Virus record (IMG/VR): IMGVR_UViG_3300042904_000308 | Span: 1 to 64,000 of that record | Strand: one strand, 5' to 3' | DNA from: a virus | DNA length: 64,000 nucleotides | In this document: piece by piece, positions 24,423 through 26,072 of the stretch | Layout: the number at the start of each line of letters is the position of its first letter | Position numbering within the stretch: position 1 is the stretch's first letter | The notes under the pieces: generated by a model | Databases searched by the model: none | What the model was told of the DNA's origin: nothing | What the model saw: the letters and a program-made list of their open reading frames with translations, nothing else | Position numbers and translations under genes: made by a program

Positions 24423-26072
24423 TCATGCGGCCATGAGCGTGACTATGTCTACCAACTGTTGTTCCCAAGGGTGTCCATAGGAATCACAGTTGTCCGAGGC
24501 CTTGACGGTCGGATGGACCATCGGCTCAATCGTAAATCGCTGCCCATCCGCGCAGTCGCGGGTGTGCTTGACGTGGATCGCAGGCTTGAACAGCGTGAGA
24601 ATCCGCCGCTTGAGCTCATAGGGCAAGCTGTCTTGCTGCACCACTTGTTGCAGTTGCCTGATCTGTGCAACAGCTCGCTCAGCGTCGGCGTACTGTCGTT
24701 CCGCCGCCATTCGCTGCTTCTGTATCTTCTGGAGCTCCCGCTCTGTTTCATCCCTCTGTCGGGCAAAGTCATCGAGCTGTGCAGCGAGGAGGCCCAGGGC
24801 TGTCTCATTGACGGCTGCAGCCTGCACCATGATCAGGTTCCGAATCTGATCGTCGATCTTCTTCAGGTGCCGTTCAAGCGTTTTCTGGACGTTACTGCGG
24901 TCGACCGTCGGCGTGTTCTTGCTGAGCATCTTGCGCAGCGCTTCCTCTCCGAAGAGGTCGTCCACCATCTGGTCCCAGGCTTCCCGATCCAGCTTCTGTG
25001 TGAGCATCGACCAGCTTGGGCACTTGTAGATCGAGGCGTTGACGGCGTTGCAGGAATAGACGTGATAGCCCAGGTGCTCCTTCGTCTTGGTGCGCTGGAC
25101 CCGAGCCGTGTGTCCGCAATACCCGCAGAACACGAACCCGCGAAATAGCGCGGACTCGGGTTGCACCGACCGCGTTGCCAGCGTCTTGTTCGTCGACAAC
25201 GCATTGATGGCGCGGTCGTAGGTCAGCTCGTCGACGAGAGCGGGTGCCGCGTTCTCGGCCAGCGCGACTCCACCCTGCGTGAGATTCCAGCGGGTGTTGC
25301 CCGATGCCGTCTTCTCCCGCTTGTAGCGATACGCCTCGGGCTTTCCTTTATAGATAGGGTTGCGGATCAGCTTCGAAATCGTTGACGCTCGCCAGATCGC
25401 ACCTGGCTTCCGCGTCGGCGTCGGGATGCCCCGAGCGTTCAGGCTGGCGGCGACCTTGACGCAGCTGCTGCCCGTCGCCAGCTCTTGAAACATCCAGCGA
25501 GCGGTCGGCGCAGTCTCCTCATCGAGCTCGAACCGCGCCTTCTTGATCACCCTCCCACTCTCAGACACGTCATCCACAAAGCAGTAGCCATACGGCGCTC
25601 TGACGTTACTGATCGGCAAACCACGCAGCCTGACTCGCGCCTCGCGGCCACGCTTGGACCGCTCGACGATCTTCTCTCGTTCAACCTCAGCGATAAAACC
25701 GCGAGCCGAGCGTATGAACTCTCCAAGCGCTGATCGGTCGAGCTCCCCGTCGACGATATGCAGCGTCACACCATGCTGGTCGCACTCATCGAGCAGAACA
25801 GCCTGATGCACCTGATTACGTGACAGCCTGTCCAGAGAGTACACGATGATCGCGTTGATCTTGCGGTCGCGCACCATCTCCCGTATATCCCCGAGCCTGT
25901 CCCTCTCATGCAGCTCAGCACCCGTCCATGTTTCCTTGAACACCAGCTCATCAGGGACGCTCAGGCCTCTCTCCTGAGCGAATGCACGGCAGCGTTCCAC
26001 CTGTGTTTCGAGCGATGTTCCTTCCTCTTCCTGCTTGCTTGTCGAGACTCGTGCGTAGACTGCCGCGATCAT
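24423..26072 (-). CDS. large serine recombinase (integrase)
   Basis: YARVST catalytic Ser; DRLSR; APYGY; recombinase domain; zinc ribbon (CGYC…C…C); coiled coil; GAGGAG RBS. Confidence 0.95.
   Translation of the reverse strand: MIAAVYARVSTSKQEEEGTSLETQVERCRAFAQERGLSVPDELVFKETWTGAELHERDRLGDIREMVRDRKINAIIVYSLDRLSRNQVHQAVLLDECDQHGVTLHIVDGELDRSALGEFIRSARGFIAEVEREKIVERSKRGREARVRLRGLPISNVRAPYGYCFVDDVSESGRVIKKARFELDEETAPTARWMFQELATGSSCVKVAASLNARGIPTPTRKPGAIWRASTISKLIRNPIYKGKPEAYRYKREKTASGNTRWNLTQGGVALAENAAPALVDELTYDRAINALSTNKTLATRSVQPESALFRGFVFCGYCGHTARVQRTKTKEHLGYHVYSCNAVNASIYKCPSWSMLTQKLDREAWDQMVDDLFGEEALRKMLSKNTPTVDRSNVQKTLERHLKKIDDQIRNLIMVQAAAVNETALGLLAAQLDDFARQRDETERELQKIQKQRMAAERQYADAERAVAQIRQLQQVVQQDSLPYELKRRILTLFKPAIHVKHTRDCADGQRFTIEPMVHPTVKASDNCDSYGHPWEQQLVDIVTLMAA
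24453..24492. repeat. imperfect 40-bp inverted repeat, candidate attP
   Basis: CAACTGTTGTTCC-caagggtgtccata-GGAATCACAGTTG; outer 13-bp arms match 11/13; lies within the last codons of the integrase. Confidence 0.55.

Follow-up and report, generated by a model that had tools for sequence, protein, structure and literature searches.

We analysed a 64,000-nucleotide stretch of viral DNA (IMG/VR record IMGVR_UViG_3300042904_000308, positions 1 to 64,000; hereafter the window), which makes up the initial 64 kb of a viral contig of 115,172 bp. On its minus strand, at 24423..26072, the window carries a gene (int) for a large serine integrase of 549 amino acids (aa), denoted P0001. We found that the last codons of this gene contain a 40-bp imperfect inverted repeat at 24453-24492. 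On balance, this repeat is probably the phage attachment site (attP) of the integrase whose gene contains it, and the C-terminal tail of the enzyme would then be swapped on integration. This placement had been proposed in an earlier reading made without database searches (the sequence-only reading). It is now supported indirectly by a half-site that is unique in the genome, by extreme codon usage under the repeat, by a conserved and unstructured tail, and by a relative of the integrase whose two junctions could be located.

The integrase and the repeat in its 3' end

The product of 24423..26072 is a large serine integrase. It matches the Pfam families Resolvase (PF00239, E = 6.5e-28), Recombinase (PF07508, E = 4.5e-17) and Zn_ribbon_recom (PF13408, E = 1.2e-7), as well as the integrase family phrog_95 (8e-91). 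An AlphaFold2 model built with 69 aligned homologues had a mean predicted local distance difference test score (pLDDT) of 84.5 and was confident through residue 519, with long coiled-coil helices at residues 393-478. The protein contains the catalytic, recombinase and zinc-ribbon domains and the inserted coiled coil that define a large serine recombinase (LSR). It is remote from cultured phages: megablast and blastn searches against them returned no match, and in tblastn the integrase reached at most 27.5% identity to any of them. Its nearest homologues are labelled Chloroflexota. The C-terminus reads ...HPWEQQLVDIVTLMAA, and the open reading frame (ORF) ends in ...SYGHPWEQQLVDIVTLMAA followed by the stop codon.

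The sequence-only reading had described a 40-bp imperfect repeat with 13-bp arms matching at 11 of 13 positions, centred at 24472/24473, and we found the repeat exactly so, with its centre in the codon for His534. The full arms (24453-24470 and 24475-24492) are 18 nt each and complementary at 14 of 18 positions (78%), with 11 of 13 in the outer 13 nt. The geometric centre, 24472..24473, is the predicted crossover dinucleotide. It is non-palindromic and reads TG on the plus strand and, on the coding strand, CA of the His534 codon CAC. Counted outward from this centre, positions 3, 4, 6, 8-11 and 14-20 are symmetric. A hypothetical 50-bp site around the same centre would cover 24448-24497, corresponding to residues 526-542. 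An imperfect inverted repeat with a symmetric span of 40 bp and a non-palindromic TG at its centre has the shape expected of an LSR attP. The blocks at positions 8-11 and 14-20 lie roughly in the region that the recombinase and zinc-ribbon domains of the LI integrase contact in an attP half-site. The outer block falls between the positions of the zinc-ribbon motif in the LI attP (~16-24) and in the bacterial site, attB (11-19) (PMC3783163).

The repeat is the top-scoring palindrome between 21.5 and 27.5 kb. Going by the genome-wide palindrome scan, chance alone would place about 0.09 palindromes of this quality in the 2.3 kb surrounding int, and the probability of one landing in the tail region of ~100 nt is about 0.004-0.01. 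The half-site consensus CAACTGTNNTTCCNANGG occurs a single time in the 115-kb genome, and a genome-wide search for a second site, as for inversion or for a pair of prophage junctions (attL/attR), found no other copy of the arms above 15/20. A unique half-site fits an attP, of which a genome should have a single copy; the members of an operator family or of an inversion pair would recur. The repeat also lies within int itself; Durrant et al. retained only LSRs located within 500 nt of their attachment site (PMC10083194). A promoter scan found no promoter embedded in the int tail.

Codon usage, tail conservation and a relative with both junctions

We asked how much of the symmetry follows from the protein sequence by resampling synonymous codons from the genome's own usage in 20,000 trials with the amino acids fixed. 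The resampled palindrome score at the repeat centre had a mean of 10.4/20, and the observed score of 14 or more was reached in 1.45% of trials (P = 0.0145, an optimistic value because the centre was picked after the repeat had been seen). The codons under the repeat include many that are rare among their synonyms: TCC (share 0.15), GGA (0.14), CCT (0.20), CAA (0.14), TTG (0.07), GTA (0.09) and ATA (0.07). Codons 529-543 form the worst-adapted 15-codon window in int. When 156 genes are compared at an equal distance from their stop codons, int has the lowest codon-usage score, and among 30,152 windows across the genome this one belongs to the lowest 0.12%. The GC content at third codon positions is about 0.40-0.47 in these codons, compared with 0.74 for int overall.

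The tail that contains the repeat (residues 520-549, HPTVKASDNCDSYGHPWEQQLVDIVTLMAA; 24426..24515, minus strand) lies outside the confident fold, with pLDDT <50, and a weak helix at 536-548 is the sole structure predicted in it. In P0002, a homologue 75% identical over the whole protein, 28 of the 30 tail residues are identical, and across the lineage formed by P0002, P0122 and P0121 (75% identity) the tail is kept at 28-29 of 30. No stretch of the protein is better conserved, and only the catalytic, recombinase-core and zinc-ribbon windows equal it. The contigs of this lineage measure 49,209, 11,188 and 3,632 bp. An unstructured, fast-evolving region that is frozen in the P0001/P0002 lineage fits a constant DNA site; a functional peptide would fit too. 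A HMMER search with the last 70 residues against 1.84 billion representatives recovered the P0002 lineage only, the eight other matches being unrelated proteins, mostly matched in multiple stretches. The codon anomaly and the conservation of the tail are in part separate from the estimate of how often such a palindrome arises by chance.

Beyond this lineage, in 66 homologues with 29-37% identity, the part beyond the last conserved strand (the R512 column) is 6-121 residues long and unalignable. Many of the homologue tails (among P0003-P0120) are long, rich in Arg, Pro and Ser, and mutually dissimilar, and they resemble an out-of-frame reading of GC-rich DNA. This resemblance suggests that gene calls crossing attachment-site junctions are common in the integrase family.

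One relative, on the metagenome contig L005, allowed both junctions to be located. Its LSR is 34% identical to P0001 over 389 aa (E = 1e-54) and lies at the end of a 7,460-bp integrative element (L005:4079-11540) that splits a comM/Mg-chelatase-like gene at its Walker A codons. The C-terminal two-thirds of comM (Mg_chelatase profile positions 25-206) are found downstream of the LSR, overlapping its 3' end in another frame, and the N-terminal part (ChlI domain and Mg_chelatase positions 1-26) is found 7.4 kb upstream. The two flanks have only the dinucleotide CT in common at the switch point. Excising the 7,460 bp between the CT copies in silico restored a 520-aa comM ORF reading ...AGSHNILLIGPPGSGKTMLA. 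The attP rebuilt in this way is an imperfect inverted repeat around CT, symmetric at 15 of 24 positions, with a perfect outer block at 16-23.

The L005 crossover falls within the LSR ORF: the free form has 15 element-encoded residues after it, and the integrated form has 31 host-derived residues. The 15 codons after the crossover resemble the 15-16 residues predicted for P0001. The L005 junctions therefore indicate that at least one member of this integrase branch has its attP in its own 3' end. The L005 element differs from the phage studied here in being a small integrative element and in having a free-form tail that ends in ...FYIKG, without -AA. Besides its LSR, the element encodes a DnaD-like/HTH protein and a phage CRI-like replication protein.

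If the repeat at 24453-24492 acts as attP, integrase dimers would bind its two half-sites, which share the pattern CAACTGT..TTCC..GG, cleave the TG/CA dinucleotide in the middle (24472/24473) and swap strands with an attB of the host. The int gene would then be placed at one end of the prophage, reading outwards. Residues 1-533 would still come from the phage, and the final 15-16 residues (..PWEQQLVDIVTLMAA) would give way to host-encoded ones up to the next stop codon. The six small genes at 22054..24389 would shift to the opposite end of the prophage, severed from int and from the leftward promoters upstream of it. This layout predicts that the repeat is bound and recombined, that the crossover falls at exactly this point, and that the six downstream genes would lose upstream transcription on integration; the stability of the integrase may change as well.

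Weighing the candidate site against other explanations

A number of observations weigh against placing attP here. As a bare palindrome, the repeat is only modestly beyond chance: even centres scoring at least 14/20 number 20 genome-wide, compared with 4.3 expected from shuffles, and roughly half of them fall in an unrelated cluster of hairpin elements. Part of the palindrome is supplied by the amino-acid sequence, which by itself yields 10.4/20, and the resampling probability is optimistic for the reason given above. The geometry is not textbook, since the symmetric span is 40 bp rather than ~50 bp and the outer symmetric block lies at 14-20, where the LI attP has it at 16-24 and the attP rebuilt for L005 at 16-23. 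In contrast to most serine integrases known to have an attachment site within their own gene, no tRNA- or transfer-messenger RNA (tmRNA)-like piece was found in the site (Rfam, E up to 10, 24250-24700), and ARAGORN found nothing at the loci of ten relatives.

The conservation of the tail also runs 6-7 residues past each edge of the 50-bp site, which selection on the protein would fit as well. All recorded copies (P0001 on three contigs, and P0002, P0121 and P0122) carry the same free-form tail, and none has a hybrid tail. A uniform free-form tail is expected for virion or replicating DNA and gives no support for integration. Searches with the integrase found no close relative among viral contigs, relatives among metagenome contigs of 47% identity or less over useful lengths only, and in ~186,000 species genomes a single 27% match and no prophage copy. 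None of the viral, metagenome and genome collections yielded a prophage relative, and the contig closes on itself. Lysogeny is not apparent in other ways: neither an HTH_3 nor a Peptidase_S24 domain was found anywhere in the genome.

The hairpin-element cluster consists of repeated elements with the form GTAGGCACCTA, a variable stem-loop and CTGATGCCT, present in ten copies between small genes at 78.9-86.7 kb (L032/L033) on the minus strand. Most of the palindrome excess in the genome comes from these ten elements. The int repeat was considered as a further member after a loose pattern match at 24452, and this assignment was rejected: the flanks agree at 6 of 11 and 5 of 9 positions (7 of 9 with a degenerate consensus) and there is no outer stem.

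Several of the points above would be accommodated if the repeat were a chance palindrome in a tail conserved at the protein level, such as a regulatory or partner-binding peptide, with the real attP, if any, elsewhere or unrecognisable. We regard this as the most serious alternative, unlikely yet deserving of real weight. In its favour are 20 palindromes of such quality in the genome where ~4 are expected, a score of 10.4/20 from the amino acids alone, conservation over all of residues 520-549 and hence wider than the 50-bp site, the same tail in every observed copy, and a genome in which no repressor-type domains were found. However, a chance palindrome would have only ~0.004-0.01 odds of landing in the ~100-nt tail, which is where the mapped attP of the L005 relative lies. 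Selection on a peptide does not predict the codon anomaly (1/156) exactly under the repeat, and the structure prediction leaves the tail disordered. A hairpin formed by the int mRNA, acting in processing, stability or control of the downstream genes, would likewise account for the unusual codons and for the conserved tail. Folding of the mRNA strand gives a hairpin of 15 pairs (-21.6 kcal/mol, z = -2.26), one arm mismatch becomes a G-U pair on that strand only, and the phage has many structured hairpin elements between its early genes. We consider such a hairpin improbable, as the z-score is modest, with 6 of 200 shuffles folding equally well, and the repeat is unlike the genome's repeated hairpin family, matches no Rfam family and is not followed by a T-run. 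A hairpin 30 nt inside the coding end would have no obvious role, whereas an LSR needs a nearby attP.

In phiC31- and Bxb1-type phages, attP usually lies just upstream of the int start codon, and a palindrome is present at that position here (26088-26123). Its arms match at 12 of 14 positions, 16-51 bp before the int ATG, with the centre 33 bp upstream, and it scored 13/20 in the same palindrome scan. The sequence-only reading had noted no comparable repeat in the flanking intergenic DNA, which this palindrome shows to be wrong. That it is the attP is nevertheless very improbable. With its 12-pair stem, GNRA (GAAA) loop and T-rich tail, it has the features of an intrinsic terminator on the coding strand; its symmetry is below that of the tail repeat, and it would leave the codon anomaly and the tail conservation unexplained. 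The terminator-like hairpin, seen in the repeat search and the terminator scan, spans 26092..26119 on the minus strand and stops 19 bp short of the int start codon. With such a hairpin just before its start, expression of int may depend entirely on read-through of the terminator. Between the hairpin and the neighbouring Thg1-like gene lies an unannotated ORF of 31 codons (26136-26231, minus strand).

It could also be that the phage does not integrate and that its serine recombinase is a passenger or has another role, with no usual attP. The genome resembles that of a large, self-sufficient phage, with a DNA polymerase, a primase and a ribonucleotide reductase; it has no CI-type or LexA-type domains, and no prophage copy was found among the ~186,000 species genomes. 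We judge this highly improbable, because int is intact, a second lineage retains it at 75% identity without frame damage, and a recombinase would still require a cognate site. Large temperate phages with serine integrases exist, for example SPbeta and Bxb1. An attP within the 3' end of int is therefore the reading we retain as probable.

Genomic setting, the proposed tag and known systems

The same 191/192 nt are found at both ends of the contig (window 1-192; genome 114982-115172), with one C differing in a poly-C run. Because the end sequence recurs, the contig closes on itself at ~114,981 bp and therefore represents a free, non-integrated genome. The source collection classes this contig as linear and 80% complete. 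It encodes a tailed-phage gene set including terminase, portal, protease and major head protein together with DNA polymerase, primase and ribonucleotide reductase. A rightward late arm runs from ~89.7 kb across the contig ends to 21.9 kb, and a leftward early arm runs from ~88 kb to 22 kb, with int close to the end of the leftward arm. The gene 3' of int begins 34 nt past the int stop codon and is preceded by an AGGAGG ribosome-binding site. It is followed in turn by the rest of six small co-directional genes (22054..24389, minus strand), which the ORF list, Pfam and PHROGs show to include a DUF4326 protein and a phosphatase-like protein. At the convergent junction of the late and early arms (window 21960-22045) there are two palindromes, one centred at 21981 and the other, centred at 22023, with the bidirectional terminator-like form AAAAAGCCCCCAGG...CCTGGGGGCTTTTTT.

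No HTH_3 (CI/XRE-type) or Peptidase_S24 (LexA-like) domain, which are typical of classic repressors, was found in any frame of the whole genome. ARAGORN recognised no tRNA or tmRNA gene in the whole 115 kb, where a degenerate form is still possible. A search with the portal for close relatives of the phage found none. Twelve other large viral contigs, of 31-190 kb, encode homologues (39-57% identity) of the Thg1-like gene beside int (26258-27082, minus strand). None of these 12 phages has an LSR or shares another gene of the region with the phage studied here, and their portals are only 23-25% identical to its portal. With no other shared genes and such distant portals, they are therefore uninformative on attP, and the Thg1-like gene appears to move between unrelated large phages.

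The sequence-only reading had also noted that the integrase gene ends in -LMAA, which can be read directly from the sequence (...VTLMAA), and had proposed that these last four codons (24426..24437, minus strand) form an ssrA-like ending. The ending is conserved in P0002, P0121 and P0122. In sequence it resembles an ssrA-like tag, with -AA following hydrophobic residues on a tail with pLDDT <50. On the other side, a C-terminal -AA is found in 3 of the 154 predicted proteins of the phage, and the free-form tail of the L005 relative, where the site is mapped, ends in ...FYIKG without -AA. Going by its residues, we consider it possible but rather unlikely that -LMAA is a protease tag on the free-form tail. 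The fuller proposal is a switch in which tagged integrase would be rapidly degraded in the free phage, the prophage form with its host-encoded tail would possibly be stable or differently regulated, and the six downstream genes would be disconnected. We hold this switch to be more doubtful than the tag.

A recombinase gene that spans its own attachment site is a layout already known. The Mx8 int gene has attP within its coding sequence, and integration gives it a new 3' end and an altered yet active enzyme (PMC6070905). The phage int would be alike in having attP inside the integrase gene; the Mx8 enzyme (IntP/IntX) is a tyrosine integrase and its junctions are experimental, whereas those of the phage are predicted. 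For the Dehalococcoides LSR DsiB, the 3' end overlaps attP/attL, and the authors raised the possibility that the gene is complete in one state only (PMC3146451). DsiB belongs to islands that target the tmRNA gene and contain a 20-bp repeat of the tmRNA 3' end, whereas the site described here has no tRNA- or tmRNA-like sequence and lies in a 115-kb phage.

In mycobacteriophage BPs, attP lies inside a coding sequence and integration removes a C-terminal degradation tag, and BPs Int too has a tag at its C-terminus (PMC3694055). The analogy with BPs, drawn in the sequence-only reading, holds in that the candidate attP is within a coding sequence. It does not extend to the gene concerned: the BPs gene that is split encodes the repressor and its integrase is a tyrosine enzyme, whereas the candidate site here is in a serine integrase gene and the genome has no HTH_3 or S24 domain. 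The arrangement is accordingly not that of BPs-type integration-dependent immunity, in which the site is in the repressor gene rather than in int. The integrases of Listeria A118/LI, phiC31 and Bxb1 share the domain set of P0001 and use short imperfect inverted-repeat attachment sites around a 2-bp crossover (PMC3783163). These canonical LSRs are only remote sequence relatives of P0001, with at most 27.5% identity. The attP of the Listeria A118/LI, phiC31 and Bxb1 phages is intergenic.

If the site is real, int would add another case of a serine integrase gene that spans its own attP, here in a large phage from the environment and with a non-tRNA target. The large genome, the non-tRNA site and the conserved -AA tail are the notable features of this phage. 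The integrase and its site would form a new integrase-attP pair that is far removed from those already characterised (at most 27.5% identity). The C-terminus of the enzyme would depend on the integration state, and gene calls on prophages would report hybrid tails, which the many Arg/Pro/Ser-rich homologue tails resemble. Were the tag to function as a degron, the logic of regulation by integration known from BPs and Mx8 would be extended to serine integrases, and the switch, if true, would amount to a lysogeny control that rewires itself, in a large phage without any recognisable repressor.

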